From positions 1 to 12,923 of the IMG/VR virus record IMGVR_UViG_2534681651_000004: a stretch of DNA of 12,923 nucleotides, one strand, 5' to 3'. Source of the stretch: a virus (Duplodnaviria; Heunggongvirae; Uroviricota; Caudoviricetes). Positions 1 to 12,923 of this stretch are shown in pieces. The notes under the pieces are model-generated. The model did not search any database and was not told where the DNA came from. It was given only the letters and a program-made list of their open reading frames with translations. Numbering within the stretch: position 1 is the first letter of the stretch; every line of letters starts with the position of its first letter. A program made the position numbers and the translations under genes.

Positions 1-337
1 CTCGCTTTCAGCACCTGTCGTTTCCTTTCTTTTCAGAGGGTATTTTAAATAAAAACATTAAGTTATGACGAAGAAGAACGGAAACGCCTTAAACCGGAAA
101 ATTTTCATAAATAGCGAAAACACGCGAGGTCGCCGCCCCGTAACCTGTCGGATCGCCGGAAAGGACCCGCAAAATGATAATAATTATCATCTACATGTCA
201 CAACGTGCATCTACGCCATCAAACCACGTCAAATAATCAATTATGACGCAGGTATCGTATTAATTGATCTGCATCAACTTAACGTAAAAACAACTTCAGA
301 CAATACAAATCAGCGACACTGAATACAGGGCAACCTC

Positions 338-571
338 ATGTCAACGAAGAACAGAACCCGCAGAACAACAACCCGCAACATCCGCTTTCCTAACCAAATG
401 ATTGAACAAATTAACATCGCTCTTGTTCAAAAAGGGTCCGGGAATTTCTCAGCCTGGGTCATTGAAGCCTGCCGCCGGAGACTGTGCTCAGAAAAAAGAG
501 TTTCGCCTGAAGCAAACAAAGAAAAGAGTGACATTACTGAATTGCTCAGAAAACAGGTTAGACCAGATTGA
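338..571 (+). CDS. Small basic protein, possible ribbon-helix-helix DNA-binding protein (YnfO-like by position)
   Basis: 77-aa ORF with a basic N-terminus (TKNRTRRTTTRN) followed by IRFPNQMIEQINIALVQKGSGNFSAWVIEACRRRL, which looks like a beta-strand plus two helices (RHH). Weak Shine-Dalgarno (SD). Sits immediately upstream of the YdfO-like gene, as ynfO does in Qin. Confidence 0.45.
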   Translation: MSTKNRTRRTTTRNIRFPNQMIEQINIALVQKGSGNFSAWVIEACRRRLCSEKRVSPEANKEKSDITELLRKQVRPD

Positions 572-628
572 AGCAATTTAGATAATCGTGCAGACTACGC
601 CCCCTCATATCACATGGAAGGTACTACA

Positions 629-1039
629 ATGGCTCAGGTTGCCATTTTTAAACAAATATTCGATAAAGTGCGAAATAATTTAAACTATCACTGGTTTTAT
701 TCTGAACTAAAACGTCACAATGTCTCACATTACATTTACTATTTAGCCACAGAGAATATTCATCTTGTTCTTGAAAACGATAATACGGTTTTAATAAAAG
801 GACAGGGTAAGGTTGTAAATGTAAGATTTTCAAAAAATAAATGCCTTATAGAAGCCACCTTAAAAGGATTCAAATCAGGAGAGTTATCATTTTACGAATA
901 CAGGAAAAATCTTGCTACAGCAGGGGTTTTCAGATGGATTACAAATATCCACGAAAACAAAAGGTATTACTATACCTTTGATAATTCATTACTCTTTACT
1001 GAGAACATTCAGAACACTACACAAATATTTCCGCACTAA
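629..1039 (+). CDS. YdfO-like prophage protein (DUF1398 family, recalled)
   Basis: ORF track gives 614..1039; the ATG at 629 is preferred because GGAAGG lies about 8 nt upstream. AT-rich coding sequence. The [14 protein letters not shown]... N-terminus is recalled as Qin YdfO-like. Confidence 0.6.
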
Positions 1040-1325
1040 ATCATAACGTCCGGTTTCTTCCGTGCCAGAACCGGACTCGCTGGCATGATGAAATATGTGT
1101 ACCCGGTAACCCCGGTGTGCATCGTTTTTGATTATTCCCGCACACTCGCGCAGAAGGAGTTCCCCGTCGGGCTACGGTCTCTGTTAATACGGGAATACGG
1201 CGACGATACAGCGCATGATGTGTCAGGCTTGAATACCTTTATCCTTTAAAAGGGATATCAGTTAAGTTATCCCGTGTAGGGTATAAGCCATTATCAAGCC
1301 CACCCGTAGATAGGCTTTGTAATGG

Positions 1326-1583
1326 CTACTTCGCTTTTGCTTCCGCTCGCTTACGCCGGCGCTCTTCTTTCCTCTCGGCTTTTGCCATGTCCATGAATGC
1401 CTGCATGATCGAGTTCCGCATCATGTAGCTAACAAAGTGATGATTGACACAGCCGTTGAGGCGCAGCTGCTCGCCAAACTCATCCACCGAGGCCAATGCT
1501 TCCATCATGCCCTTCTCGCCTTTCATGAACTCTGAGAAGTCGCGCCCCGCTCTGGAGGCGCATTCAATAACACGATCACTCAT
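1326..1583 (-). CDS. Hypothetical 85-aa protein with a lysine/arginine-rich C-terminus, translationally coupled to the KilA-N gene
   Basis: Its ATG (1583..1581) overlaps the TGA stop of the upstream ORF (1582..1580) as ATGA. C-terminus is KAERKEERRRKRAEAKAK. Confidence 0.5.
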   Translation of the reverse strand: MSDRVIECASRAGRDFSEFMKGEKGMMEALASVDEFGEQLRLNGCVNHHFVSYMMRNSIMQAFMDMAKAERKEERRRKRAEAKAK

Positions 1584-2077
1584 CCCGGAAGCCCGGGGAT
1601 CGTAATCTGCAGCTGGTTAGCCAGGGAGTTAATCTCAGCGACCAACACTGGCTTCGTATAGCGCCATGCCGCCAGCCCTTGTCCGCAGAAGCTCGCCATA
1701 TCTTTTTTCTGATCAAACTCATGACACTTCATATTGAGCTGTGCACTTAAGCTGTTGCGATGCTGAAGTTCTCCGGTGAAGTAGTCATCCAGGACTTTAT
1801 AGGCTGCATATTTAAATCCGGGGTTTAGCCATGCTGCATAATCATAAGCAACAAACTTCCCGCCATATGTTCCACCGTGTACACCGCGCTCAGTAAAAAC
1901 CACAGATTCGTGGTTTTTCTCCAGCTCGGCTAAGAACTCTTTGGTCTGCTTGTTTCGCAGGTAGTGGTACGGAGATTCAGATTCACTTTTACCACTGGCT
2001 TTCCACATATCAGTGAGGCAGATCATGCCATCTTCACCGATACGAATTGGTTGATTGAAGAGGGTTAATGATTTCAT
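1580..2077 (-). CDS. KilA-N domain protein (antirepressor/Bro-N-like)
   Basis: 165 aa. Motifs ICLTDMWKASGK ... LRNKQTKEFLAELEK ... HGGTYGGKFVAYDYAAWLNPGF match the KilA-N pattern (ligand-binding N-terminus, GGTW.H core, WL.P.F). Confidence 0.7.
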   Translation of the reverse strand: MKSLTLFNQPIRIGEDGMICLTDMWKASGKSESESPYHYLRNKQTKEFLAELEKNHESVVFTERGVHGGTYGGKFVAYDYAAWLNPGFKYAAYKVLDDYFTGELQHRNSLSAQLNMKCHEFDQKKDMASFCGQGLAAWRYTKPVLVAEINSLANQLQITIPGLPG

Positions 2078-2190
2078 AGCGTGTACCTACTCTTTGAAAT
2101 GAACCTTTGCCGCACAGGAAACCAGCCCACCGAGGCTCGCCAGCACTAACTGGTATCCTCAAAGGCCCATTCCAAAGGGGCAGGTTCGGT

Positions 2191-2219
2191 GTAAAAAAAA
2201 CATGCGTTGCGGTACGCAT
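2191..2219 (-). terminator. Rho-independent terminator (second of a tandem pair after Rz)
   Basis: Minus strand reads ATGCGT-ACCGCA-ACGCAT followed by GTTTTTTTT. Confidence 0.6.
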
Positions 2220-2224
2220 TTATT

Positions 2225-2249
2225 GCAAAAAAGCCCCGCATCGCGAGGC
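2225..2249 (-). terminator. Rho-independent terminator at the end of the lysis operon
   Basis: Minus strand reads GCCTCGC-GAT-GCGGGGC (7-bp stem with one G.U pair) followed by TTTTTTG, about 30 nt downstream of the Rz stop. Confidence 0.65.
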
Positions 2250-2281
2250 TCATTAAATGGACTTTGTGATTTGCAAAAAAA

Positions 2282-2734
2282 TTATTTCAGGCATTGCGTC
2301 CTGATGTACTCCTGCAGGTAGTTAACCTGCGCGGTTATCCTGTCGATTCCACTTCGGAGACGGTAATAATTGAGTTCAGCATCTGCTGTAAGTCTTGGGC
2401 TTTCTCCATCGCCCATGCTGCTGGCTCCGGTCTTTGACTTTGCACATGAGGCGGCGACTTGCAGCCGCTTACGCCCAGCAGAAACATCATCACGGAGACT
2501 TTCGATAGTCGCATTAGCATCAGCAAGCTCCTTTGTATATCTGGCATCGAGTTCTGCTACGTCACGTTGACGCTTCTGCATGTCAGCGATGATGGATGTG
2601 GCTTTGTCGCGCTGTTCTTTGTAGGTCATGGCGTTATCACGGTAATGATTAACAGCCCATGACAGGCAGACGATGATGCAGATAACCAGAGCATAAATAA
2701 TCACGGCAACTCTGCTCACTGCTCTATCCCCCAA
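2282..2734 (-). CDS. Rz: Rz i-spanin (inner-membrane spanin subunit)
   Basis: Strong similarity to lambda Rz ([34 protein letters not shown]; N-terminal TM helix, coiled-coil body). The likely true start is the GTG at 2719, which overlaps the endolysin TGA stop as GTGA; the ORF-track start at 2734 is a TTG. Confidence 0.85.
2335..2520 (-). CDS. Rz1: Rz1 o-spanin (outer-membrane lipoprotein spanin), embedded in the +1 frame of Rz
   Basis: Out-of-frame ORF lying wholly inside Rz. Signal peptide [20 protein letters not shown] with lipobox VSGC, then a proline-rich mature part ([16 protein letters not shown]). Start is chosen at an internal Met of the 70-aa track ORF; the exact start is uncertain. 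Confidence 0.7.
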
Positions 2735-3249
2735 CAGGCTAATGCGCTCTCCTGATCACGACGAATAACCTGACCGTAACAGTTATTTGAACGAAGGCGG
2801 CAATCGCGCCCCCTGTCCTTAATCCACCAGCGAATCGCCTCGCAGGCACCTTTACGATCACCTGCATTCAGCCGCTTATAAAATGTCGACGGAAAACACT
2901 TAGCGGGGCCAATGTTATAGGGACAAAATGACGCGATACCCGCTTTTTGTGGTTCGGTCAGTGTTACTTTAATATTGCGATCCACCCATGCCAGCGCCTT
3001 ATCACGCTCAATGGCATTAACCTGATCGCATTTTTCCTTCGTCAGTGTCATGCCCGGAATAACAGGTTTACCATCTACTATCGTGGCACCGCGACAGATG
3101 GTCCATATGCCGGAACCATCGCGGTATGCCGTAGTGTGGTTACCCTCTTTTTCATCCAGAAACTGGTCAAGTATCTCAGGAGCAGATGCGCCTGCTCCAA
3201 TCAGCGCCAGAACGGCCGCTGACAGGCCGTATTTGATTTTTGCGTTCAT
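2716..3249 (-). CDS. R: SAR endolysin (phage-21 R-type lysozyme, T4-lysozyme fold)
   Basis: 177 aa. N-terminal weakly hydrophobic Gly/Ala-rich signal-anchor-release segment ([18 protein letters not shown]). Catalytic E-x8-D-x5-T triad in [16 protein letters not shown]. Confidence 0.9.
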
Positions 3250-3354
3250 GGATATTTATCAGGATTTATCGGTTTCTGAACCCTGGATATGTTTATCTGC
3301 CCCGGCCTGTTGAATCAGGCGGGGAAAAGGTAAATACAATCAAGAGGATTATTT

Positions 3355-3627
3355 ATGGACAATAACACCATTTCTCTACAGGAGTTGCTCGACTGCATTT
3401 CCAGGCTTCGGGATGATGTAAATGCCCTCACTGTTGCATTTTCATATCTGGCCTTATCAATTCCCAGAGAACAAATGCAACCAACACTGGCATCGCTCCT
3501 GCTTGAATCACGCAACCCCAAATGGTCCCAGGAACAACAAAATTCTTTTAAGTGGCTGGCGGCATTACTGGAAGAAAAATATGCTGGTAAAATTACCATT
3601 TCGGTGGAGTCTTCAGAAAATCAGTAA
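3355..3627 (+). CDS. Hypothetical 90-aa protein encoded antisense to the lysis operon
   Basis: Good SD (AAGAGGA, 7 nt spacer) before the ATG at 3355. Protein-like composition with a predicted helical character. Its 3' end overlaps the 3' end of the minus-strand 3593..3937 gene by 35 bp. Confidence 0.45.
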   Translation: MDNNTISLQELLDCISRLRDDVNALTVAFSYLALSIPREQMQPTLASLLLESRNPKWSQEQQNSFKWLAALLEEKYAGKITISVESSENQ

Positions 3628-3937
3628 TTCTTCCTGGTAGCTTTCCTTTGTAGGTTATCCACACATTCTGCGCCTCTAAAATTACGGGGCGCTTTTCCGG
3701 CGACTGCTCATCCCCTTCACATAACCCGGCAGCAACATCCAGGAAGACCTGTCTGATGCTCCTTCTGGCTGCAGACTCATAAAACTCCAGCGCAGCACCT
3801 TCAACACGGTTCAGCGAGATGTCCAGGTCAAAAATTTCACCGTCAAAGCGTTTTTTGTCTTGTAATGCTACAGTTACCGCAACTTTATTCTCAAAATTGC
3901 GGATCCCTTTCACAATCAGTTCATAGTCTTGGGTCAT
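3593..3937 (-). CDS. Small phage protein inserted between holin and endolysin (YdfR/DUF1327-like by position)
   Basis: 114-aa ORF with an ATG start; a GAGGAG SD lies inside the end of the holin gene. Occupies the slot between S and R where Qin-type prophages carry ydfR. Confidence 0.6.
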   Translation of the reverse strand: MTQDYELIVKGIRNFENKVAVTVALQDKKRFDGEIFDLDISLNRVEGAALEFYESAARRSIRQVFLDVAAGLCEGDEQSPEKRPVILEAQNVWITYKGKLPGRITDFLKTPPKW

Positions 3938-3941
3938 TATA

Positions 3942-4157
3942 TTACTCTCCTCTCGCAGCCTTTCTTCTGTCTTCTCTGATTTTGAAGTACAGATTTGTCA
4001 GATAAGTCAAAAAACCCAGAACCAGGCTACCCAGCACACCTATTGCTGCCCACTGTGAGGGCGTGACTTTATCGAGCAGCTGTAAAAACCAGTAGCCAGC
4101 ACTGCCTGCGGAGGTGCCGTAGGCAATGCCTGTTGAAATTTTGTCCATGGATTTCAT
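3942..4157 (-). CDS. S: Pinholin (S21-type class II holin with dual start)
   Basis: [26 protein letters not shown]...[30 protein letters not shown] is near-identical to recalled phage-21 S21. Dual-start motif M-K-S-M, with a strong GGAGGTGA SD before the ATG at 4157. The ORF-track 90-aa version (start 4214) is probably over-extended. Confidence 0.85.
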
Positions 4158-4254
4158 AGCCTCACCTCCGCACGGAACGGATGGCATAGTTATTATGTGT
4201 AGGCTTTCAGACACATCAATCAGAGCCTTAATTGATATATATGCTGGAGACGAT

Positions 4255-4283
4255 GCAATATAAAAAGCTCGCCGTAGCGAGCT
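4255..4283 (-). terminator. Rho-independent terminator closing the lipoprotein cargo block, upstream of the holin
   Basis: Minus strand reads AGCTCGC-TACG-GCGAGCT followed by TTTTTATATT. Confidence 0.65.
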
Positions 4284-4408
4284 AATAAAATGTATTTCTC
4301 TGATATTATGTTTATTTGTATTAGCTCAGACTTGACATCACAGGTTTCGTATATAGAACATCATCAAATCTGTCAGTTTGCTATGAATGAGATATAGTAA
4401 TTGAAGAG

Positions 4409-4804
4409 CTAACCTCGCATGTCAAAGCCAGATTTCTGAAAATCTCTGTAGACTTCCGGATTGTTGAAGGCCGGAAATTTGGCTTTATGAGCTGCGGACT
4501 TTATCGCTTCGCAATAGGCTTTATCACCGTTACTGGTAGATATTTTTAACGCCGTGCCATCCTGAGAGAATTCCATATGCAACCTGCATTTTTTCCCTTT
4601 CCAGTTATGCGGCTCATCAAGTTGGGCATTAATTGCAGCTCTGATTCCCCGCGCTTGCGCCCCCCATTCATCCTGATCATCCCAGCGTCCTGAACTGCAA
4701 CTACCCGTAGCAGTAGTTTTGTGGCAATCTGAAGGGTGTAAAGGTGTGCATCCCGCAACAAAACCGACCCCAAAAGTCAACATAACGATTTTCTTTAATC
4801 CCAC
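4409..4804 (-). CDS. Lipoprotein with a TolA C-terminal (domain III)-like domain, divergent paralog
   Basis: GTG start with a GAGGAG SD. Signal peptide plus lipobox VAGC (MGLKKIVMLTFGVGFVAGC). C-terminal region ...KGKKCRLHMEFSQDGTALKISTSNGDKAYCEAIKSAAHKAKFPAFNNPEVYRDFQKSGFDMRG shares the two Cys and the PEVY..FQ motif with the neighbouring paralog and with TolA domain III. Confidence 0.75.
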   Translation of the reverse strand: MGLKKIVMLTFGVGFVAGCTPLHPSDCHKTTATGSCSSGRWDDQDEWGAQARGIRAAINAQLDEPHNWKGKKCRLHMEFSQDGTALKISTSNGDKAYCEAIKSAAHKAKFPAFNNPEVYRDFQKSGFDMRG

Positions 4805-4954
4805 TTCTTGCTCCTCAATCCATTAAAATCTCAGCAATAGTAGTTGTTACGTCCGCCACTGGCTCAGAGCTGACTATCCGCTAAATTTAGCTCAGTGCCG
4901 TAGCTGTGTCAGAACAAACCTAAGCCGAAACCGTTTATTACAAAACAATAAATA

Positions 4955-5383
4955 TCAGGGTTTAAAATCCAGCACCCCATTTTGAAATACTTTATATACT
5001 TCCGGCGAAGGGGGGGCAGGTATATCAGCATTCTTTATCGCATTCATCGCTTCACGACATAAATCGAGGTCTCCACTTTCTCTTTTAACCTCCAGTAGAA
5101 GGCCATTCGGGGCCATATGCATTCTCAGTGTACACTCTTTTCCTGAATACTTACTCGCATCCCCGAACTGTTTTTCGATGGCGCTCTTGATTTGATGGGC
5201 ATACAGACGGATATCCTCACTAACATCAGAAGTACGTTCAGATGAACTCACATACTGTGTCTCTATTGCTTTATCGGAGTAATATGATGTACGGTCATGA
5301 TAATTTGTCGATACAGCATCAGTGCACCCGATAATAATCCCACTAATAATCAACATAAGAATTGATGCGCTACGAAAACCCAT
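4955..5383 (-). CDS. Lipoprotein with a TolA C-terminal (domain III)-like domain
   Basis: ATG start with a GAGGA SD. Signal peptide plus lipobox IIGC (MGFRSASILMLIISGIIIGC). C-terminus YAHQIKSAIEKQFGDASKYSGKECTLRMHMAPNGLLLEVKRESGDLDLCREAMNAIKNADIPAPPSPEVYKVFQNGVLDFKP closely matches the recalled E. coli TolA C-terminus (YAGQIKSAIESKFYDASSYAGKTCTLRIKLAPDGMLLDIKPEGGDPALCQAALAAAKLAKIPKPPSQAVYEVFKNAPLDFKP). Confidence 0.8.
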   Translation of the reverse strand: MGFRSASILMLIISGIIIGCTDAVSTNYHDRTSYYSDKAIETQYVSSSERTSDVSEDIRLYAHQIKSAIEKQFGDASKYSGKECTLRMHMAPNGLLLEVKRESGDLDLCREAMNAIKNADIPAPPSPEVYKVFQNGVLDFKP

Positions 5384-5916
5384 TTTTCCTCACATATGTC
5401 ATATAGTAAAGGATTATATATACCGTTGTTTTGGACGCTCAAACAGCGAATCAGATCAAATAAAACGCACATTTGTTAACATTTACACAAAGGCTGCGTG
5501 GAATATTCTGAAAGAATATCCATAATGTGGAGAGAATCTATTGAAGTGCATGGTGCCGGGTGCCTCCCGGTGAATTCAGTACCAGCACCTGAATCCGCGA
5601 TTATCCCATATACCTACTCGCTGATTGCCCCTCCGCACAGGGGGATTCACCATGCCAGTTTCTTTTAACAAACTCCCCGCAAACCAGAGAACAGTCAACC
5701 GCCTGAATTGTGAAGTATTTAAAAATTTCTCCCGCTAACTGATACCCGGCTAACAGTCTGGCGTTTTCTTTTTCAGCAACGGGAAAGCAACAACCACCAC
5801 ACCCGCCACCAGCACACCGTCAGCCAGCACTGACATTATCCGGCTGCTGCAATGCCATTCACAAAAACAGTAAGCAATCACTTTTTACCGTAACAGGTGA
5901 TAATCCAGATATGTAT

Positions 5917-6270
5917 CTACCCCAGATGAGTAATCCGAAGTTCATCCATACCACAGGTCCTGGCTATTCTGTTGTACTCCTGAACAAGAGCAAATAATTC
6001 TGAATTAGCAACCATGAACTCATCGCAAACCCTCTGTATAGCATCACTATTCAGAATAATAACGTCTCTTCCCGAAAGACGATCAGGAGCACAGAACAAA
6101 ACTGTCAAACGGCTGAAGGCCTTTGCTCGTGCTGCATTGACTATATCAATACGCTGCCTAAGGATGAAACACCCCGACGCCTCATCAATATTCACTCTAC
6201 CCACACCATATGAATGATAAATATTTAATGCTGAAAAAACCATTAGACCGTATAACAAACACTCAATCAA
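5917..6270 (-). CDS. Hypothetical protein (possible decayed gene)
   Basis: 117-aa ORF with a TTG start and no convincing SD; the first internal ATG (6243) also lacks an SD. Followed by about 400 bp without long ORFs. Confidence 0.35.
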   Translation of the reverse strand: MIECLLYGLMVFSALNIYHSYGVGRVNIDEASGCFILRQRIDIVNAARAKAFSRLTVLFCAPDRLSGRDVIILNSDAIQRVCDEFMVANSELFALVQEYNRIARTCGMDELRITHLG

Positions 6271-6380
6271 TACTTAACAGAACTTTTATTTTTGACAAAC
6301 ATATTATGTTTTCAACAATATCCTGAGCCAGGTATATTCCAGTATAAGGCTCTGCCGGAAGGAATCTGGAAGAATGAATA

Positions 6381-6457
6381 TGGCGCGCTGTACTGGATTC
6401 GAACCAGTGACCGATTGCTTAGAAGGCAATTGCTCTGTCCGGCTGAGCTAACAACGC
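6381..6457 (-). tRNA. tRNA-Arg (anticodon UCU, reads AGA), phage argO-like
   Basis: Reverse complement GCGTTGTTAGCTCAGCCGGACAGAGCAATTGCCTTCTAAGCAATCGGTCACTGGTTCGAATCCAGTACAGCGCGCCA folds as a cloverleaf: 7-bp acceptor stem, anticodon stem ATTGC/GCAAT, loop CTTCTAA, T-loop TTCGAATCC, encoded CCA. Confidence 0.85.
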
Positions 6458-6470
6458 TGAATACCGATAA

Positions 6471-6550
6471 TGGACCGCCATCGGGGACCCGCCCCCGCAC
6501 CAACAACCCTGTTATCGTGTCGTCTGCTCTTCCTGATAAGCTAATGGCGG
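6471..6550 (-). pseudogene. Degenerate tRNA-like element (possible argN-like remnant)
   Basis: Reverse complement CCGCCATTAGCTTATCAGGAAGAGC...CGGGGGCGGGTCCCCGATGGCGGTCCA has a perfect 7-bp acceptor stem (CCGCCAT/ATGGCGG), a D-arm (GCTT...GAGC), a T-stem and 3' TCCA. It lacks a canonical anticodon arm and has a non-consensus 6-nt T-loop. Confidence 0.45.
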
Positions 6551-6557
6551 TTTGTGA

Positions 6558-6633
6558 TGGTGGCCCTTGCTGGATTTGAACCAGCGACCTGGCGATTATG
6601 AGTCGCTCGCTCTCACCACTGAGCTAAAGGGCC
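6558..6633 (-). tRNA. tRNA-Ile2 (anticodon CAU, lysidine type; ileX/ileZ-like)
   Basis: Reverse complement GGCCCTTTAGCTCAGTGGTGAGAGCGAGCGACTCATAATCGCCAGGTCGCTGGTTCAAATCCAGCAAGGGCCACCA closely resembles recalled E. coli ileX, including the CUCAUAA anticodon loop, and has an encoded CCA. Confidence 0.8.
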
Positions 6634-6668
6634 GGGAGCAGAATAATAACGGTCCGTAATTAATTCCG

Positions 6669-6696
6669 CAATAAAAAACCCGCTCGGCGGCGGGTT
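6669..6696 (-). terminator. tR'-like rho-independent terminator downstream of pR'
   Basis: Minus strand reads AACCCGC-CGCCGA-GCGGGTT followed by TTTTTTAT, between the Q stop and the tRNA cluster. Confidence 0.7.
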
Positions 6697-6735
6697 GTAG
6701 AAACTCTTCTAACGTCAGGCATAAAAAGCCCATCA

Positions 6736-6771
6736 TTATGACGAATTTACCACAGATTCCGGAAAAATCAA
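6736..6771 (-). promoter_or_regulatory. pR'-like late promoter with probable qut/pause region
   Basis: Minus strand has TTGATT, a 16-nt spacer and TAAATT immediately after the Q stop. A -10-like CATAAT in the initial transcribed region fits a sigma70-dependent pause as in lambda pR'. Confidence 0.55.
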
Positions 6772-6776
6772 CCTTG

Positions 6777-7598
6777 TTACCTAGTTACCTTTTTTAACTG
6801 CCGCTCAGCCCATGCTTCTTCAATATCAAACCGGGTCACCAGCGCATCATAGAATTTCTTAACTGTTTTTTCCCATGACGCGCGTGTTATCTGGTTTGTC
6901 ACCTCGCATATAGCATTAAATGCCTCCGTTGATGGTAGTCTTTCATAGCCACGACCACCACAACGCTGGCAGTCTCTGATAACAGGCATACCACGTTTTA
7001 CCGACTCTTCACGGTGAATGGCGACACCACGCCCACGGCAATCCTTACAGGCGGTGGAAACCTCACCCTTTCCGCCACACTCCGGACAGGCAACTTTTAC
7101 CACCTCCCTGACTTTTTTCCATTCTTCCCAGTAAGACGGATACACACCTTTCGTACACTTTGCCCATACCGGCGGCTTACCATCCGGATACTGGACCTTG
7201 TTTGTAAAAACTACGCTTTCAATAAATTTTTCCCCATAGCAACAAGGGCACTGCTTTTTACTCGCTGCGCTGCGGGCATAATCCTCAAAAGCGTACGAAG
7301 CCATAATGCGCATCACTACCGGTTTTATTTCTGCCGGAAGTTTTCTCAACGCCGCCACACGATCGCACCGACTGAGTGCATAATCTGCCAGTAATTCTGT
7401 TGCCCGCGCCCTGTCATTCATACTGATGCCCATTTTCCCCAGGAACGCAGAAAACCCCATCTCAGCCCGATTCTGTGTCATGCCCTGCGCGGCCATCACA
7501 TCAGTGATACTCAGCGCATCTTTTGACGTTGAAGCCGATGCATCGGTCAGGCAAGGGGATTTTGGGGAGTAGTATTTCGGTAAATCTTCCAGTTTCAT
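6777..7598 (-). CDS. Q: Late antitermination protein Q (Phage_antitermQ family)
   Basis: 273 aa with multiple CxxC zinc-ribbon motifs (CPCCYGEK, CPECGGKG, CKDCRGRG, CQRCGGRG). Sits directly upstream of pR'/tR'. Its ATG overlaps the RusA TGA stop as ATGA. Confidence 0.8.
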   Translation of the reverse strand: MKLEDLPKYYSPKSPCLTDASASTSKDALSITDVMAAQGMTQNRAEMGFSAFLGKMGISMNDRARATELLADYALSRCDRVAALRKLPAEIKPVVMRIMASYAFEDYARSAASKKQCPCCYGEKFIESVVFTNKVQYPDGKPPVWAKCTKGVYPSYWEEWKKVREVVKVACPECGGKGEVSTACKDCRGRGVAIHREESVKRGMPVIRDCQRCGGRGYERLPSTEAFNAICEVTNQITRASWEKTVKKFYDALVTRFDIEEAWAERQLKKVTR

Positions 7599-7969
7599 TT
7601 TTTGACCTGCTCTTCATGCATTATGGGGTAAATCTTCACCCCCATACGTCCACCAGATACTGGCTGACCACGAACGATATTGATTTCATCAAACTGCTCA
7701 TCGTCCATTAACACTCCCGCATGCGTCAGCGCATCCAGCGGTGCTTTCAGGATATTGTCCAGGTCGCGACGACGCTTATCCGGTGGCTCTGCAATCACCT
7801 TTATCGCCAGCCTTCCGGACAGGCTTAATTTCAGCCGCTGCTGGCGAACAATAAGCGCCACAGCACGGCGATAACGCTTTCCCTCCTCCGAGATAAAATA
7901 TGTGCTGCCACGGCGTCGCCAGTAAGTGTTCACCGTCGGCGGGTAAGGTAAAACCAAATCTATGAGCAT
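7595..7969 (-). CDS. rusA: RusA Holliday-junction resolvase
   Basis: 124 aa. LPYPPTVNTYWRRRG ... PDKRRRDLDNILKAPLDALTHAGVLMDDEQ matches recalled RusA (PWPPS.N.YY / PDRRRRDLDNL.KA.FDALT). Confidence 0.85.
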   Translation of the reverse strand: MLIDLVLPYPPTVNTYWRRRGSTYFISEEGKRYRRAVALIVRQQRLKLSLSGRLAIKVIAEPPDKRRRDLDNILKAPLDALTHAGVLMDDEQFDEINIVRGQPVSGGRMGVKIYPIMHEEQVKK

Positions 7970-7981
7970 CAGTCACCTCTT

Positions 7982-9031
7982 TTACCCAAGCACGCCAGTT
8001 GCAAAGGCGTGATCAAGAAAACGAAAAATTAAATCAACCTGAGAACCATGCTTTTCTTCGAACGCCAGCGGATCCGCATGAAGCTCGTTGTGATGCTCCC
8101 GACACAGCGGTAGCGTGAAAATATCGTGAGATTTTGTCCCCATTCCGCCCTGACCATGACCAATCAGGTGATGGGGATCGTCGGTTGGCTTACCACAACA
8201 CGCACACGGCTGTGTCTTCACCCAGCGTGTGTATTTCTCGTTAACCCAGCGGCGACGTTTAGGTCGTTTCATAAAAGATTCCGGAGACTCAGGATCAACG
8301 GCAATGCTGACCACCGTCTTTTCCTGTGGTGGGTTCTGTTGCTGGTGGGCGTGAGGCAGCGGCGCAAGATTTTTTGTGCGCTGTTTCAGTATGCTGGTGG
8401 CGGTCTGCTCTCCCGGTACGATGTCGCTTTCACGGTACATTGAGCGGATTTTTTCCGCACGCAACCCCAGCGAACGACGTAATACCGCTTCCGGTAGCGC
8501 GTCCGCCACCTGATTGCGGACCGCCCACCAGGATAATTCAGCCAGAGATAATTCACGCTCCTGCGTACCGCTTATTGCGTGACCGATGACGTCAATCATC
8601 CATGCTGACAGGTTTTGATGAGCAAGTTGCTCGAGTGATTCGGATGTCTGGTCACGCAGCTGGTTGTCGCAGTGCCAGCACAACACCATTGCGCCGGTAC
8701 CATAACGGTGAATGACGGTTTCGCTGTGATGATAATCGCCGTGTGGCCACTGGCAGGATTTAATATGGCGCAACAGCCAGTCAGACAATGCACCAGCACC
8801 ACAAGCAGCACGAATCACCCGTGCGTTACTGAAAAACGGCAGCAATGTTTTGTCTTCCACCAGCGGCTGGCGAGCGGCAGGAACGACCCCGGACGGCAGA
8901 TTACGCATGCTTTTCGGTTCCGGCTCCACCAGTAACCGGGTATTGTGGAATACCGGCATGGATTCACGGCCCGGCTTAACGATCACCAGCCCGAGTTCCG
9001 GTACCAGAACAGGTCGAAGTAATACCCGCAC
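7982..9031 (-). CDS. DUF968-family protein (YdfU-like) with a C-terminal Cys/His HNH-like motif
   Basis: 349 aa with a GTG start preceded by GGAGG. C-terminus CACCGKPTDDPHHLIGHGQGGMGTKSHDIFTLPLCREHHNELH. Positioned before rusA and Q as ydfU is in Qin. Confidence 0.7.
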   Translation of the reverse strand: MRVLLRPVLVPELGLVIVKPGRESMPVFHNTRLLVEPEPKSMRNLPSGVVPAARQPLVEDKTLLPFFSNARVIRAACGAGALSDWLLRHIKSCQWPHGDYHHSETVIHRYGTGAMVLCWHCDNQLRDQTSESLEQLAHQNLSAWMIDVIGHAISGTQERELSLAELSWWAVRNQVADALPEAVLRRSLGLRAEKIRSMYRESDIVPGEQTATSILKQRTKNLAPLPHAHQQQNPPQEKTVVSIAVDPESPESFMKRPKRRRWVNEKYTRWVKTQPCACCGKPTDDPHHLIGHGQGGMGTKSHDIFTLPLCREHHNELHADPLAFEEKHGSQVDLIFRFLDHAFATGVLG

Positions 9032-9032
9032 G

Positions 9033-9422
9033 TTACCTCCAGATGCGTTGCTGGAATGTGTGGGACGGACGCGGTGGGCGTTCGGAGTAAGGCAATCTGA
9101 CTGAGATTATCCAGTGACGGTAGTCGAGGCTAAGGGCTTTTTTAACCTCGTATCCGCGCCTGCGGTAACACTGAATTATCCATTCAGCCTGCTCTTCAGT
9201 GCATGGTGGATGCTGGAACCAGTCCGATTTGAATGCATGAAAACGCCGTCCGCACCTGCTGGCAAAGACGGCAGAATCATCAGAATTGTGTAATTTGGTA
9301 TCGTGCGCCATCGGTTGTCTCTGCTGGCGCAGCAGGTGCCAGTTGTTCAGGCTGGCGTATAAAGTATAAATAAACTGGTTCCAGTGTAAAGCCCCTACAT
9401 TAATGGAATAAAAGTCAAACAA
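9033..9422 (-). CDS. Hypothetical nin-region protein (start uncertain)
   Basis: ORF-track start is a TTG with no SD; the first ATG is at 9311 (92 aa). Stop lies 1 nt before the start of the downstream DUF968 gene. Confidence 0.45.
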   Translation of the reverse strand: MFDFYSINVGALHWNQFIYTLYASLNNWHLLRQQRQPMAHDTKLHNSDDSAVFASRCGRRFHAFKSDWFQHPPCTEEQAEWIIQCYRRRGYEVKKALSLDYRHWIISVRLPYSERPPRPSHTFQQRIWR

Positions 9423-9576
9423 CAGATTGTTGGGATAAACACAACGCTTATTATTAAAAGCGATTAGATAAATTAAATTTTAATGTTATGCAATTTTACC
9501 AGATCACCATAACATCTCGTTTGAAACCACCGAAACAACAACCATATCAATATTGATTATGTTAAAGTGAGTAAAT

Positions 9577-9663
9577 ATGGAAAACAACAAATCTGCACAT
9601 TACGCTCCTTTTTTATCTGTGATACTTTTTGTTTTATGCTGTGTGTGGGCATTATTTTTATAA
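9577..9663 (+). CDS. Candidate small hydrophobic peptide (28 aa), convergent with hok
   Basis: MENNKSAHYAPFLSVILFVLCCVWALFL has a polar N-terminus and a 17-residue hydrophobic stretch. Modest SD (GTGAG), AT-rich upstream region. Below the ORF-track size cutoff. Confidence 0.3.
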   Translation: MENNKSAHYAPFLSVILFVLCCVWALFL

Positions 9664-9671
9664 AAATATTT

Positions 9672-9701
9672 ACAGATAAAATAAACCCGCCGAAGCGGGT
9701 T
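9672..9701 (-). terminator. Rho-independent terminator of the hok transcript
   Basis: Minus strand reads AACCCGC-TTCG-GCGGGTT followed by TATTTTAT, about 70 nt after the hok stop. Confidence 0.7.
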
Positions 9702-9769
9702 AAGTGCGGGTGCATTGAGGATGCCTGACACATCAGAGGTGGCGAGGGATTTCTCCCTCGCCAAGTCTC

Positions 9770-9925
9770 TTACTCCTCAGGTTCGTAGACTGTGAAGACA
9801 GCGACCTCCGTCTGGCCGGTTCGGATTCGTACCTCGCAGAGGTCTTTCCTCGTTACCAGTGCCGTCACTATGACGGTTAAACAGATGACGATCAGGGCGA
9901 TTAACATCGCCTTTTGCTGCTTCAT
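9770..9925 (-). CDS. hok: Hok-family type I toxin (HokD/RelF-like)
   Basis: MKQQKAMLIALIVICLTVIVTALVTRKDLCEVRIRTGQTEVAVFTVYEPEE is near-identical to recalled HokD. AAGGAG SD upstream of the ATG at 9925. The 70-aa ORF-track version (start 9982) is an in-frame upstream extension, possibly mok-like. Confidence 0.9.
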   Translation of the reverse strand: MKQQKAMLIALIVICLTVIVTALVTRKDLCEVRIRTGQTEVAVFTVYEPEE

Positions 9926-10136
9926 AGCCTGCTTCTCCTTGCCTTTCGGCACGTAAGAGGCTAACCTAGATTTGCCGTTCATAGATTGAGCCTCAGATTA
10001 ATGTTAAGCGTCTTGCAGGACGCGTAATGTTAACTGGGGCTTTTCTCTATCTGCCTTTGGTGTTCATGCCTGAGACAGATAGCCTCAAGCACCCGCAGCC
10101 ATTCTACTTAACTCCCGTCACCTGGCCAATATAAAA

Positions 10137-10226
10137 TCAATCAGAAAGGCGATCCATAAGAACAACAGCAAGACAATAAATTGCCATTACAGCTGCAATA
10201 GCCAGCGCACATTTGAGAACCAGCAC
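10137..10226 (-). CDS. Candidate small hydrophobic peptide (29 aa) with a strong SD
   Basis: AGGAGG, a 5-nt spacer, then a GTG start; encodes MLVLKCALAIAAVMAIYCLAVVLMDRLSD. Not on the ORF track (below size cutoff). A 17-bp perfect palindrome lies about 50 bp upstream. Confidence 0.3.
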   Translation of the reverse strand: MLVLKCALAIAAVMAIYCLAVVLMDRLSD

Positions 10227-10275
10227 GACAACCTCCTGTATTGGACGTACACCAGTCCTGATAAATATGAGGCTC

Positions 10276-10292
10276 TCTCATCATTGATGAGA
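10276..10292. promoter_or_regulatory. 17-bp perfect palindrome TCTCATCATTGATGAGA (candidate operator)
   Basis: Perfect 8-1-8 inverted repeat between the AT-rich 345-aa gene and the hok unit, upstream of the small ORF 10137..10226. Confidence 0.4.
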
Positions 10293-10511
10293 TACAACTA
10301 TTGGGTATAGTTTCTGTGATTTTGTTCTGTAGAAATGGAACACAACAACCAGTAACCACCAGCGATTCTTTAAATACGCCAAATCCGACGCAAGCTAACC
10401 TTCTAGTCCGCTTTGGGCGAAGACCGGACGTTCGATAGGTGTGAACTAGTAACTTTAAAAACATTTAATTACCAGTAAAAAAACAAGAATATACTATCAC
10501 TTTTCCAATTT

Positions 10512-11549
10512 TTAATTACCCTTATCAATTTTAAGAAATACATTTCCAATCTCATCAGAATAATCCTGTATTATTTTTGAAATGACGGCATGATCAATGG
10601 TTGGTTTTAAGAATAAAAGTGTCACAGTAATCTGCATCAAACTAATAGCAGTAGCATGGGCTGGATCAGCCATTCCTGAATCACTTTGCCCGACCAATAA
10701 TATATCATCACCAGTTTCACAGAGACCAAGCCTATTTCTCATTGCCTTGGAACCGGTGTGTACATTCTGACTCGCCCACTTATAATAAGGGCGCATGTGT
10801 TCTAACTGAACATCTTTCTCAATAGCTCCAAACCCCACTTTATTATGGTTAGGGAAAATATAAGATGCCCACCCATAATTATCTGCATATTTTTTGCCGT
10901 ATTTTTTTATTAATAGATCAAATTGAACTTTACACTCAGCTATTTCTTCAATAGTTGGACCTTTTGCTTCTAACCGGTGCTCGTACTTTTTGTGTTCCAA
11001 CATTCCAGTATATGAATCAACCACTTCATGGTAGTAAAAGCGCTCAGCACACTCTTTTCCATGCTTTGCTATAAACATAGCTGTGGCTGCTACCTCATGA
11101 AGTGCTCGCCATCTCGCTTGGGCAGCATCTGCAAATCCATTCTTTAAGAGACACAAAATTTCGTTGGCGATGTGGCAAGCTCTTGCGTGATGCCGAACGA
11201 CTAAATCAAAAACCACATCCTCTTCAGAGGCAGCTTGTGGTCTATAAGAACGATTGAACTCTTCACCGGACTCCGTGCATATCACTATAAGTGTTTCGAG
11301 CAAATCAAAAGCCTCTGCCCATCTTGAAATATTTCTCTCAACAAATTCATCACAAAGAGAACGATGTTCTCTAAGCATTGCATTGGCCGAGCCAATAAGA
11401 GATTTTTTAACGACAATGGCTATTTTGGGAATTAGGTTATTAATTTCTTTTTCGATATCAGCGTCACCAGATAAATCAAGCCTCTCTTTTAAAAGGCTGT
11501 CTATGTGCTCAAGCAAAATATTATGAAAAGTATCCATGTCATATCTCAA
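10512..11549 (-). CDS. AT-rich foreign hypothetical protein, candidate defence/abortive-infection protein (possible HEPN-like Rx4-6H motifs)
   Basis: 345-aa ORF with an ATG start, visibly lower GC than its neighbours and flanked by AT-rich intergenic DNA. Contains RHHARACH and RWRALH (Rx4-6H-type) motifs. No confident family assignment from memory. Confidence 0.7.
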   Translation of the reverse strand: MRYDMDTFHNILLEHIDSLLKERLDLSGDADIEKEINNLIPKIAIVVKKSLIGSANAMLREHRSLCDEFVERNISRWAEAFDLLETLIVICTESGEEFNRSYRPQAASEEDVVFDLVVRHHARACHIANEILCLLKNGFADAAQARWRALHEVAATAMFIAKHGKECAERFYYHEVVDSYTGMLEHKKYEHRLEAKGPTIEEIAECKVQFDLLIKKYGKKYADNYGWASYIFPNHNKVGFGAIEKDVQLEHMRPYYKWASQNVHTGSKAMRNRLGLCETGDDILLVGQSDSGMADPAHATAISLMQITVTLLFLKPTIDHAVISKIIQDYSDEIGNVFLKIDKGN

Positions 11550-11642
11550 TAAGTTTTAAATCCATGTGGCACACCCATAATATAAAAATAAACAGCATGC
11601 CAGTCTAAGTCTGGCTATTTGTATATCATATCACCTGAAACA

Positions 11643-11671
11643 TTGACAGATGTAACCCACCAAAATATTAT
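11643..11671 (+). promoter_or_regulatory. Near-consensus sigma70 promoter on the plus strand (TTGACA-N17-TATTAT)
   Basis: TTGACA at 11643..11648, exact 17-nt spacer, TATTAT at 11666..11671. It points rightward, antisense to the 11765..12190 gene; no plus-strand ORF follows. Confidence 0.5.
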
Positions 11672-11764
11672 CAATGACCACTCTTGGCACAAAGCGAACA
11701 ACCACGCTAGCTCTACCTTGTGCCATGAAAATGTCAATGCATATCTGAACTAATGCCCTTTAAT

Positions 11765-12190
11765 CTAGTAACGTCTAAAATACCTAACATTTCCCTGATA
11801 AAATGCCATAATGCGCTGCATAACTTCGCTCTTCCGGCACTCGCGACAGATTATGTTTAGACAACTATCGTAGCGACGTATTTCTCCGTCAGGTAATGAC
11901 CAGATAAGGTCCGGATCAACCGCAGATGGTTTCTTCAGCTTTGCCCTTGAGAGCTTTTTACGGGCATTTTGCCAGTCCTTACGCGCCTGTTCAGACGGGA
12001 ATAACCCGTAACCAGAGTTGTATACATCGCCACTGGCAACCAGCTCTCTGGCCAGAACGCTCATCAGATATCTTGTTGCCCCAGTTTTAGTTTCCAGTTG
12101 TCGTAACGTCTCGCGCCCACTCTGGCGTACGAGTTCAACAACCTGCCCTTTAATTTTTTCCCGCTCTTCTTGTGTAAAAACTTTTGCCAC
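11765..12190 (-). CDS. Small hypothetical protein with a probable helix-turn-helix near the N-terminus
   Basis: 141 aa with a GTG start preceded by AGGAGGG. The segment TLRQLETKTGATRYLMSVLAREL looks like an HTH. Basic C-terminal half with CxxC (CRECR). Confidence 0.6.
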   Translation of the reverse strand: MAKVFTQEEREKIKGQVVELVRQSGRETLRQLETKTGATRYLMSVLARELVASGDVYNSGYGLFPSEQARKDWQNARKKLSRAKLKKPSAVDPDLIWSLPDGEIRRYDSCLNIICRECRKSEVMQRIMAFYQGNVRYFRRY

Positions 12191-12230
12191 AAGCCCTCCT
12201 GAAAATTACCTCATGACCAGAAATTAACAC

Positions 12231-12884
12231 TTACCCCCTGAAGCCCGGCGGAATTTCGTTATCCGGTTCAGAAATATGATTCACACAACGCTGGTTGTTC
12301 GTGCCGCTTACCGGGAGCAACCAGGGGTTCTCAAAATTCCGGTCCGGTCCAAAAAACGTCGTCGCTCGCTGAACAAATTCCGTTCCCGTTTTCCCGGTAG
12401 CCGCCAAGTATCTTGCGTAACGCCTCACGCCATCCAGCATGGCCTCTGGTGGCACCCCCTCGCGTAATCTGGCCTTCCAGGCACTGAAAGCGGATTTCTT
12501 CGGGTTTGCTCCGGCACGCAACGGGTACTCCCGCCAGACCTGTTCGAACACATCCGGATAATCCACTCGTCCCACAGACAGCCCGGTGTTTTCCGGGACT
12601 ACCCGATCGGCTTCCCGCTGAATGGCGGAATCGGCTTCAGGCTGCTGCAGTTGGTGTGATTGTTCCGGCCTTTGGGTCATCACCTGCTGCACAGCGCCCG
12701 AATCGGCTTTCAGCGCATACGCTGAATCGGCTTCCGGTGTCGTGCCTGCTGGCTGACCAGGATTGACGGTCTGAACATCCCCTGCCTGGTTCGTGGCGTT
12801 TTTTACGCCATGGACCATAGTGTTTTGATCTTCTTGATCTGTATCTTTATCTGTATCTTTATCTGTCGTGACTCGTCGTGACAT
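12231..12884 (-). CDS. Hypothetical protein, possibly the C-terminal part of a longer replication-type protein whose reading frame stays open to the window edge
   Basis: 217 aa from the ATG at 12884, but the frame has no stop through 12923, so the gene may start beyond the window. N-terminal acidic low-complexity region (TTDKDTDKDTDQEDQ; Pro/Gln/Ala-rich linker); conserved-looking C-terminal domain (VDYPDVFEQVWREYPLRAGANPKKSAFSAWKARL...). Confidence 0.6.
   Translation of the reverse strand: MSRRVTTDKDTDKDTDQEDQNTMVHGVKNATNQAGDVQTVNPGQPAGTTPEADSAYALKADSGAVQQVMTQRPEQSHQLQQPEADSAIQREADRVVPENTGLSVGRVDYPDVFEQVWREYPLRAGANPKKSAFSAWKARLREGVPPEAMLDGVRRYARYLAATGKTGTEFVQRATTFFGPDRNFENPWLLPVSGTNNQRCVNHISEPDNEIPPGFRG
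12837..12866. repeat. 12-bp tandem direct repeat (ATCTGTATCTTT, about 2.5 copies)
   Basis: atctgtatcttt atctgtatcttt atctgt; encodes the DKDTDKDTD repeat on the minus strand. Confidence 0.7.
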
Positions 12885-12913
12885 GTGCGTGACATTTCGT
12901 GATGCGCCGTGAC
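12867..12913. repeat. Iteron-like array: five CGTGAC/T hexamers at 10-11 bp spacing
   Basis: CGTGAC at 12867, 12877, 12888 and 12908, and CGTGAT at 12898, giving helical-turn periodicity. The array straddles the start of the edge ORF. Confidence 0.6.
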
Positions 12914-12923
12914 AATCGCCATT

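Follow-up and report, generated by a model that had tools for sequence, protein, structure and literature searches.

The tRNA cluster and its middle element

The window analysed here is a stretch of 12,923 nucleotides (nt) covering positions 1 to 12,923 of the Caudoviricetes record IMGVR_UViG_2534681651_000004 (IMG/VR), and the subject is a cluster of three tRNA-shaped elements on its minus strand. The cluster lies in a lambda-like Escherichia coli prophage, and the window was found to be 100% identical to Escherichia phage mEp460_ev081 over the 361 bases tested. The three elements had been predicted from the sequence alone, and their outer limits, 6381-6633, were found to be exact. The outer two were found to be the canonical genes ileZ and argO, both working readers of rare codons as had been predicted, and the remnant of a third gene was found between them (Table 1). 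The proposed site, that of the ileZ-argN-argO cluster in phages of the Shiga toxin (Stx)/933W type, agreed with the position of the middle element between ileZ and argO, downstream of the Q antiterminator gene and a terminator hairpin, and with the alignment to the Stx2a phage WGPS8 described below. The ileZ gene was found to contain C4:G69 and C5:G68, as read from the sequence, and the identical gene with anticodon CAT is annotated as tRNA-Ile or ileZ in RefSeq, by the Prokaryotic Genome Annotation Pipeline (PGAP), and in GenBank (Stx phage records and all RefSeq copies inspected).

Structure of the middle element

The middle element (6550-6471, minus strand) was found to contain CCGCCAU UA GCUU AUCAGGAA GAGC AGACGACA CGAUAAC AGG GUUGUUG GUG CGGGG GCGGGU CCCCG AUGGCGG U CCA. 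The acceptor arm contained a perfect stem of 7 bp (CCGCCAU/AUGGCGG) and the CCA end was encoded, as in a canonical tRNA, and a D stem of 4 bp with one U.G pair and a T stem of 5 bp were also present. The anticodon arm of a canonical tRNA, a 5-bp stem located 1 nt past the D stem and closing a 7-nt loop with U33 and a purine at position 37, was not found; in its place two pairings could be read, one of 7 bp closing a 3-nt loop and preceded by 8 extra nt, the other of 5 bp closing an 11-nt loop. Lacking an anticodon loop, the element does not encode a functional tRNA-Arg with anticodon UCG. The T-loop was found to contain six nucleotides, GCGGGU, without the conserved U54-U55-C56 (T54-Ψ55-C56). 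The hand-fold given in the original prediction, with its acceptor stem, D-arm, CCA, 6-nt loop and missing anticodon arm, was borne out by the sequence and the computed fold.

In agreement with that hand-fold, neither tRNA search returned a normal tRNA at the middle element. ARAGORN made no call there while finding both outer tRNAs, and the Rfam tRNA model RF00005 gave no match either at its gathering score (29 bits) or at E ≤ 10 when the stretch was searched alone. The fold of the element was no better than that of shuffled sequences, with z-scores of -1.6 for the element alone and -1.1 within a 266-nt precursor.

Homology with argN and origin of the central segment

In WGPS8, ileZ, argN and argO are all annotated, and argN was found to be a normal 77-nt tRNA-Arg with anticodon UCG (ARAGORN). 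Its acceptor stem, D-arm, T-stem and CCA, together with both spacers, were found to be homologous to those of the window, and the two sequences could be aligned base for base outside the anticodon arm. According to the GenBank annotations, on which this and the following comparison rest, argN of the 933W-type Stx2 phages occupies the same slot, flanked by ileZ and argO, with Q upstream of it and the late or cargo genes downstream. This argN contains the same acceptor strands, discriminator U, CCA, D-arm and T-stem. It differs in the 23 nt from position 26 (G UCAGC CUUCGAA GCUGG UUGCG, comprising the anticodon arm and the variable loop), which are replaced by 28 nt in the window, and in the T-loop, which is UUCGAGU in argN and GCGGGU in the window, where the form has become unrecognisable to tRNA finders.

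The Stx2e phage phiP27, whose argN position is the nearest known counterpart of the middle element, was found to contain the identical replaced 28-nt central segment, AGACGACACGAUAACAGGGUUGUUGGUG, in a cluster that is 92% identical overall. However, phiP27 retains the UUCGAGU T-loop, with a mismatch in the T-stem, and a D stem with GCUC, whereas the window contains GCUU and has lost the T-loop; the window form would lie one decay step beyond the phiP27 form. The GenBank record of phiP27 annotates ileZ and argO only and leaves the argN position blank. In one Stx2e prophage the label 'tRNA-OTHER' was given by PGAP to a gene of the phiP27 type, 81 nt long, with the replaced arm and an intact UUCGAGU T-loop. 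The ileZ of the phiP27 type (IMG/VR loci L002 and L366) was found to contain GCUA instead of GCUC in its D stem, which leaves an unpaired position and may slightly impair the Ile2 tRNA in this lineage.

A covariance model (R1) was built in this analysis from 33 variable-loop relatives occupying the slot in other phages, with the window-type sequences excluded. The middle element was found to score 56.2 bits (E about 2e-13) with R1, compared with 49.6 and 40.8 bits for the two adjacent real tRNAs. Together with the argN alignment, this score indicates that the resemblance of the middle element to a tRNA is not due to chance, and the match of the acceptor strands, which the original prediction had allowed might be coincidental, is accounted for in the same way. 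The body and the CGAUAAC/GUUGU stem shared by the relatives were found in the window element, which differs from all 33 aligned members in two respects, namely the absence of a UUCGAGN T-loop and the presence of a 10-nt connector between the D stem and the anticodon stem in place of 1-2 nt. R1 was found to pair ACGAC with GUUGU in the middle element, so the 8 extra nt are a second, degenerate copy of the 5′ strand of the stem.

The middle element is a true member of the argN-slot lineage that has been stripped of the features defining a tRNA. Its central segment derives from a diverged allele type of the same slot (CGATAAC...GTTGT) and not from the random decay of a UCG anticodon arm. A search with the short pattern GAGCCGATAAC...GTTGT was discarded, as it returned mostly chance matches, with a tRNA-like context in 14 of 85 loci and in locus L251. 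One IMG/VR haplotype with a 97-nt slot (...GCGCGGGGGGCGGGTCCCCG...) was found to contain an argN allele with an intact UCG arm but the T-loop GGCGGGU, followed by the same downstream spacer as in the window. Given this haplotype, the window form appears to have arisen by recombination of a replaced-arm allele with one whose T-loop was damaged.

Probable decay in the window-type lineage

An unbiased sample of the slot was obtained from 139 viral (IMG/VR) loci anchored only on the ends of both outer tRNAs. A recognisable tRNA-Arg(UCG) was found in 89 of them, and 46 contained nothing acceptable to ARAGORN. Decay was found to have followed independent routes, which included the window type, deletions in the anticodon arm, mismatches in the acceptor stem, and the GGCGGGU T-loop in an otherwise intact argN. 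The replaced-arm forms could be arranged in a graded series, beginning with the form containing the replaced arm and an intact T-arm (81 nt), followed by phiP27 with its T-stem mismatch, the window form with its lesions in the D stem (C13 to U) and T-loop (GCGGGU), and finally further-damaged forms with a deleted T-stem base, acceptor mismatches, a T8 to G change and, in what had been the T-loop, G-runs reaching a length of 12.

The kind of change tolerated by each of the three genes was compared among 10 divergence-selected copies of the window type from complete E. coli genomes, taken together with their flanking tRNAs. In argO, the T stem showed a compensated change from C:G to G:C and the acceptor stem a change from U.G to U:A, both of which keep the structure, and in ileZ a single C:G to U.G change was found, which also keeps it. 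Unlike these neighbours, the middle element contained five pairs that varied only by breaking, with no compensated change, as well as the T8 to G change, and the G-run in its former T-loop was 5, 6, 8, 10 or 11 nt long. The IMG/VR haplotypes were found to follow the same pattern of uncompensated stem changes and indels. The AUA and AGA readers remain under clear purifying selection.

A crude estimate of the diversity of individual segments in the window-type lineage was left unused, as it was distorted by mosaic junctions, among them, in some loci, one that truncates argO. In locus L004 (phage vB_EcoS-640R1, about 1740-1830), a mosaic junction was found to cut argO just past the anticodon, so that ileZ is the only intact tRNA there, and the degenerate element was unchanged.

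Relatives of the slot in other phages

In other phage contigs, relatives of the element were found to be 73-78 nt long and to contain a C-G-(A/G)-(U/C)-A-A-C ... G-U-U-G-U-(A/U)-G stem with loops of 5-8 nt, and in all relatives examined the slot was located directly 3′ of tRNA-Ile2. These variable-loop occupants resemble the window element in their body, stem and position, and they also fail the Rfam tRNA model. They differ in their length and loops, in their intact UUCGAGN T-loop and in their highly conserved bodies, whereas in the window form the 5′ strand of the stem is duplicated, the loop contains 3 nt, the T-loop is destroyed, and the sequence varies freely.

A second sample, anchored only on neighbouring tRNA-Ile2 and tRNA-Thr genes, was found to contain 122 loci in 34 haplotypes. 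The slot was occupied by a canonical tRNA-Arg(UCU) with an invariant loop (56.4 Rfam bits) in 28 of the 122 loci, and by a form containing the loop CCUUUAA, with C33, in 67 (44.4 Rfam bits; called Lys-UUU by ARAGORN; for example locus L254, 378-454, minus strand). The latter loop was found to be invariant except for C or U at position 33, which is nearly universally U in tRNAs, followed by a discriminator U. Since its loop is invariant save for that position, the CCUUUAA form behaves like a selected gene. Short-loop forms were found in the slot of 23 of the 122 loci, with no Rfam match at E ≤ 10. Those with a 5-nt loop contained only 3 variable positions out of 77, two of them in the loop, compared with about 17 of 76 columns in the adjacent tRNA-Ile2 of the same loci. 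Such conservation of the short-loop body could reflect either strong selection for a non-decoding role or a recent spread of the cassette. Short-loop forms were found in 5 of 5,426 E. coli genomes and are unannotated by PGAP.

In IMG/VR loci such as L256 (5537-5609, minus strand), L269 (923-996, minus strand), L305, L340 and L343, these short-loop genes are 73-74 nt long with loops of 5-6 nt, and their central loop bases were found to vary by copy (TAA, TTA, ATA, TGA, ATG, TTT and others). Hypermutation of the loop, or diversifying selection on it, was considered for the relatives and withdrawn, as the loop contained 0.8-1.0 minimum substitutions per site and the flank about 1.1. The loop changes at about the rate of the flank, so the unusual feature of the relatives is their conserved body. 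Covariation among the 33 variable-loop relatives was not significant against shuffled alignments and was not counted as evidence of function.

Taken as a whole, the slot may encode a family of non-decoding RNAs derived from tRNA-Arg, with loops of 5-8 nt of free sequence and a nearly invariant acceptor, D and T body, but this is rather doubtful. If it were true, such RNAs would perform a non-translational job, for example guiding RNase P to neighbouring rare-codon tRNAs or acting as a decoy for defence nucleases that target tRNAs, and the window copy would be a partly disabled member that may retain the acceptor/T-stem part of that job.

Weighing of the alternative explanations

The middle element is most readily explained as a tRNA pseudogene without function, in the slot that is held by argN in the Stx phages, and we put the probability of this reading at roughly 0.8. 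Homology with argN, loss of the universal tRNA elements and relaxed constraint, in the form of uncompensated stem changes and indel polymorphism, are features of the sequences themselves; the transcription, processing and lack of function of the element are inferred. A decaying tRNA had been one of the origins proposed in the original prediction, and the population data on stem changes and G-run length favour it. Several observations nevertheless weigh on the other side. The acceptor, D and T stems are still perfect in the window copy, and a cloverleaf-like fold persists within the 266-nt precursor; the bodies of some non-decoding relatives are more conserved than the adjacent real tRNAs; and the 10 copies compared had been picked for their divergence in a query consisting mostly of the element, so that the amount of change, though not its kind, is biased upward. 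Full loss of the slot is also rare, with a 1-nt gap between Ile2 and Arg in locus L163 and a 78-nt slot in L164 as compared with at least 119 loci containing 80-110 nt. Among gaps outside the range of 31-49 nt, the 1-nt gap was the sole complete loss found, and both L163 and L164 belong to another cluster type, Thr ... Ile2-[X]-Arg(CCG)-Gly(UCC), in which X is either present (76 nt, loop CUGAG) or absent (L163, 2048-2204, minus strand; L164, 4027-4334, minus strand).

The original prediction had also suggested that the element is kept for another role, and a non-decoding tRNA-like RNA under selection could be either a scaffold or a decoy. As a scaffold, its acceptor/T-stem minihelix would let RNase P cut 7 nt past ileZ and so aid the maturation of the neighbouring tRNAs; as a decoy, it would bind nucleases or other enzymes that target tRNAs while offering no cleavable anticodon loop. 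The intact stems and encoded CCA of the window copy, the slot being almost never empty, and the few variable positions of the short-loop homologues between Ile2 and Thr are in line with such a role, as are the 97.8% of paired cells over the 33 variable-loop relatives, compared with 33-48% in slid controls. For the decoy, it may be added that prophage anticodon nucleases are common in the lambdoid niche (PMC13043305) and that loop alterations in phage tRNAs have been put forward as a way of escaping such nucleases (PMC10264068). In the window lineage, however, acceptor, hairpin and T-stem pairs are broken without compensation and the former T-loop has become a slipping G-run, whereas all the putatively conserved relatives keep the TTCGAGN T-loop that the window copy has lost, and their covariation cannot be told apart from shuffles. 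A retained role was considered unlikely for the window copy on these grounds. A regulatory small RNA (sRNA) derived from a tRNA, pairing through its hairpin loop or the 8-nt segment with an mRNA or another tRNA, would fit the predicted stable hairpin (7 bp, triloop AGG), the 8-nt single-stranded segment and the frequency of sRNA genes in this region of lambdoid prophages, where STnc100 was found about 700 nt downstream. Such a function is very unlikely, since the element matches no Rfam family, its fold z-scores are unremarkable, and copies that are otherwise nearly identical differ in the hairpin stem as well as in the single-stranded segment (A to G, G to C, T to G).

An aberrant tRNA that still decodes could be drawn from the alternative 5-bp stem aligned by R1, with ACGAC/GUUGU closing an 11-nt anticodon loop. 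That loop lacks the U33-NNN-R37 context, the T-loop is 6 nt long, polymorphic in length and without U54-U55-C56, and no ARAGORN or Rfam score was obtained, so that this possibility is effectively refuted by the sequence and is next to inconceivable. The remnant of a site-specific integration target, that is, a tRNA fragment of the attachment-site (attP/attB) type, had been suggested as well, and tRNA genes are common integration sites. Nothing was found to point to it here and it is hardly credible, as the element is of full length at both ends instead of being a 3′ fragment, has intact tRNA genes as its alleles at that position, and in every locus examined is enclosed in a tRNA operon that has Q on one side and the lysis genes on the other; the integrase region lies outside the window. 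The tRNA-like modules of the YrlA RNAs, which are bacterial Y-RNA-like RNAs, share with the window element a tRNA-shaped body of acceptor, D and T arms and the lack of a decoding anticodon loop. The window element differs from them in having neither the Ro-binding helix nor the rsr context. A mimic of the YrlA type was rejected, as the YrlA model RF02553 (gathering score 69 bits) gave no match in the window even at E ≤ 10. The matches of the relatives to YrlA (19-20 bits, chance level) and to 'Plastid-ycf2' were dismissed as general tRNA-likeness or antisense tRNA. In the searchable literature on ileZ/argN/argO, on prophage elements resembling tRNAs and on tRNA decoys, neither the degenerate argN nor the variable-loop forms were found to be described.

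Proposed history and fate of the pseudogene

With the element taken as a pseudogene, its ancestor would have been a diverged allele of the slot with the anticodon stem CGAUAAC/GUUGU(A)G. The 5′ strand of this stem would then have been partly duplicated (AGACGAC followed by ACGAUAAC) while the loop shrank to 3-5 nt, followed by the later loss of U54-U55-C56 from the T-loop as UUCGAGU gave way to GCGGGU. The middle element presumably shares with ileZ and argO a transcript that starts at the Q-dependent late promoter, and its position suggests that this Q-modified late transcript extends past the terminator and across all three genes of the cluster. The ileZ and argO RNAs would be matured and support the decoding of AUA and AGA. 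Because the acceptor/T-stem helix and the CCA remain, processing may release the middle RNA as a stable acceptor/T-stem species. It would be unable to decode, and since arginyl-tRNA synthetase (ArgRS) recognises E. coli tRNA-Arg by anticodon nucleotides, and these identity elements are gone, charging by ArgRS is improbable. Nothing indicates that the phage needs the middle RNA, and the element probably owes its persistence to its young age and to its location, flanked by two tRNA genes under selection within a highly successful module of Q and late genes.

Neighbouring genes and codon usage

On the coding strand, the cluster was found to be preceded by genes for a DUF968 protein, RusA and the Q antiterminator (Pfam), and followed by an open reading frame (ORF) without a Pfam match, an STnc100-family sRNA, two proteins with a TolA C-terminal domain, a P21-type holin, a DUF1327 protein and a lysozyme. 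The cluster had been predicted to lie downstream of pR′/tR′, which is plausible. The terminator part of this claim agrees with a hairpin found by consensus scan, whose position suggests that it acts as tR′, whereas the candidate pR′, which may be the late promoter, matched 8 of 12 consensus positions and fell under the threshold of the scan.

Table 1. Features of the tRNA cluster, of its middle element and of the region upstream.
Feature	Position	Strand	Basis
argO, tRNA-Arg (anticodon UCU, reads AGA), canonical	6381..6457	-	ARAGORN tct call; Rfam RF00005, 68.0 bits
AU-rich spacer UUAUCGGUAUUCA, 13 nt, preceding argO	6458..6470	-	Sequence; alignment of copies
Degenerate argN-slot element, 80 nt	6471..6550	-	Sequence, fold, argN homology, family model R1
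Middle element, acceptor stem strands	5′ 6550-6544; 3′ 6481-6475	-	Sequence and fold
Middle element, D-arm	6541-6526	-	Sequence and fold
Middle element, extra segment AGACGACA, 8 nt	6525-6518	-	Sequence and fold
Middle element, hairpin CGAUAAC-AGG-GUUGUUG	6517-6501	-	Sequence and fold
Middle element, T-stem with 6-nt loop	6497-6482	-	Sequence and fold
Middle element, discriminator U; CCA	6474; 6473-6471	-	Sequence
Spacer UCACAAA, 7 nt, from ileZ CCA to middle element	6551..6557	-	Sequence; alignment with Stx2a argN cluster
ileZ, tRNA-Ile2 (anticodon CAU), canonical	6558..6633	-	ARAGORN CAT call; Rfam RF00005, 72.5 bits
ileZ decoding, AUA reader once lysidine-modified	6558..6633	-	Anticodon CAU
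Intrinsic-terminator-like hairpin AACCCGCCGCCGAGCGGGUU then U-run (tR′-like), about 40 nt upstream of ileZ	6677..6696	-	Consensus scan
Promoter-like TTGATT-16 nt-TAAATT directly past Q stop codon, candidate pR′	6744..6771	-	By eye
Q antiterminator gene, 273 aa	6777..7598	-	Pfam PF03589 Antiterm, E 6e-55

Two ORFs overlapping the cluster, 6292-6579 (plus strand) and 6312-6506 (minus strand), run across the tRNA genes and were taken as spurious. A promoter-like TTGACA-16-AACAAT was found on the opposite strand just downstream of argO (6292-6319, plus strand). If active, it would give rise to antisense transcripts of the tRNA genes; chance probably accounts for the match, as 3 such sites were found in the region and 1.2 were expected. 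The STnc100-family sRNA (RF02076, 111 bits; 5494-5684, minus strand) is located between the tRNA cluster and the TolA-like genes, and STnc100 has been related to the prophage PasD sRNAs (2026 preprint). The TolA-like genes (4955-5383 and 4409-4804, minus strand) were found to encode paralogous small proteins of 142 and 131 amino acids with the C-terminal domain PF06519 and signal peptides of the lipoprotein type (...IIGC and ...VAGC). They occupy the site of the toxin genes in Stx phages, and the lipoprotein pair might act as decoys for colicins or for the entry of filamentous phages. Further away, a sok antitoxin RNA (RF01794, 110 bits; 9920-10094, minus strand) was found to overlap a small ORF region of the hok/mok type, given as MokW in the mEp460 annotation, and this region is a toxin-antitoxin module of the hok/sok type belonging to the prophage.

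The two intact tRNAs had been taken as a hint that the cargo genes downstream of the cluster are codon-biased. In the window, ATA was found at 13.6-15.9 and AGA at 11.9-13.4 per 1000 codons, compared with E. coli averages of roughly 4-5 and roughly 2 per 1000, respectively. The enrichment itself was therefore upheld, but its link to the cargo was not, since the frequencies of both codons, about 12-16 per 1000, were similar on either side of the tRNAs, and the intact tRNAs thus fit a codon habit of the whole phage. CGA and CGG, the codons of argN(UCG), were found at 2.4 per 1000 each in the late genes, as compared with 13-16 per 1000 for ATA and AGA, and this scarcity fits an argN loss that the phage could afford.

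Prevalence, annotation and significance

The 5,426 complete E. coli genomes were surveyed with a 136-nt query that spans the element with its two spacers and reaches 18 nt into each neighbour. Matches were found in 1,947 of them, about a third, including ST131 strains such as EC958. Among the matching records, 1,034 were at least 99% identical to the query and 654 were 95-99% identical; the weakest matches (80-90%) are loci with an intact argN and not the window form. A query with the intact argN matched 1,539 genomes, mostly at 90-95% identity, which points to many older alleles of intact argN, and the sets of genomes matched by the two queries can overlap. In every RefSeq copy inspected, the window-form element was left unannotated by PGAP, which called only the flanking tRNA-Ile and tRNA-Arg.

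The remnant is thus common and looks like the product of ordinary gene decay, and some related elements of other phages have been preserved surprisingly well. In annotation, the element is best labelled as a tRNA pseudogene of the argN slot, neither left blank nor presented as a new RNA. The dispensable member of the three phage tRNAs would be the reader of CGA and CGG, codons that are hardly used by the late genes. Some phages have a canonical tRNA-Arg in this slot, many have the form with C33 and a 'UUU' loop, and others have highly conserved tRNA-like genes with short loops. Phage tRNA clusters are now being reinterpreted as a counter-defence against anticodon nucleases, and the diversity of this slot is hence worth following up.

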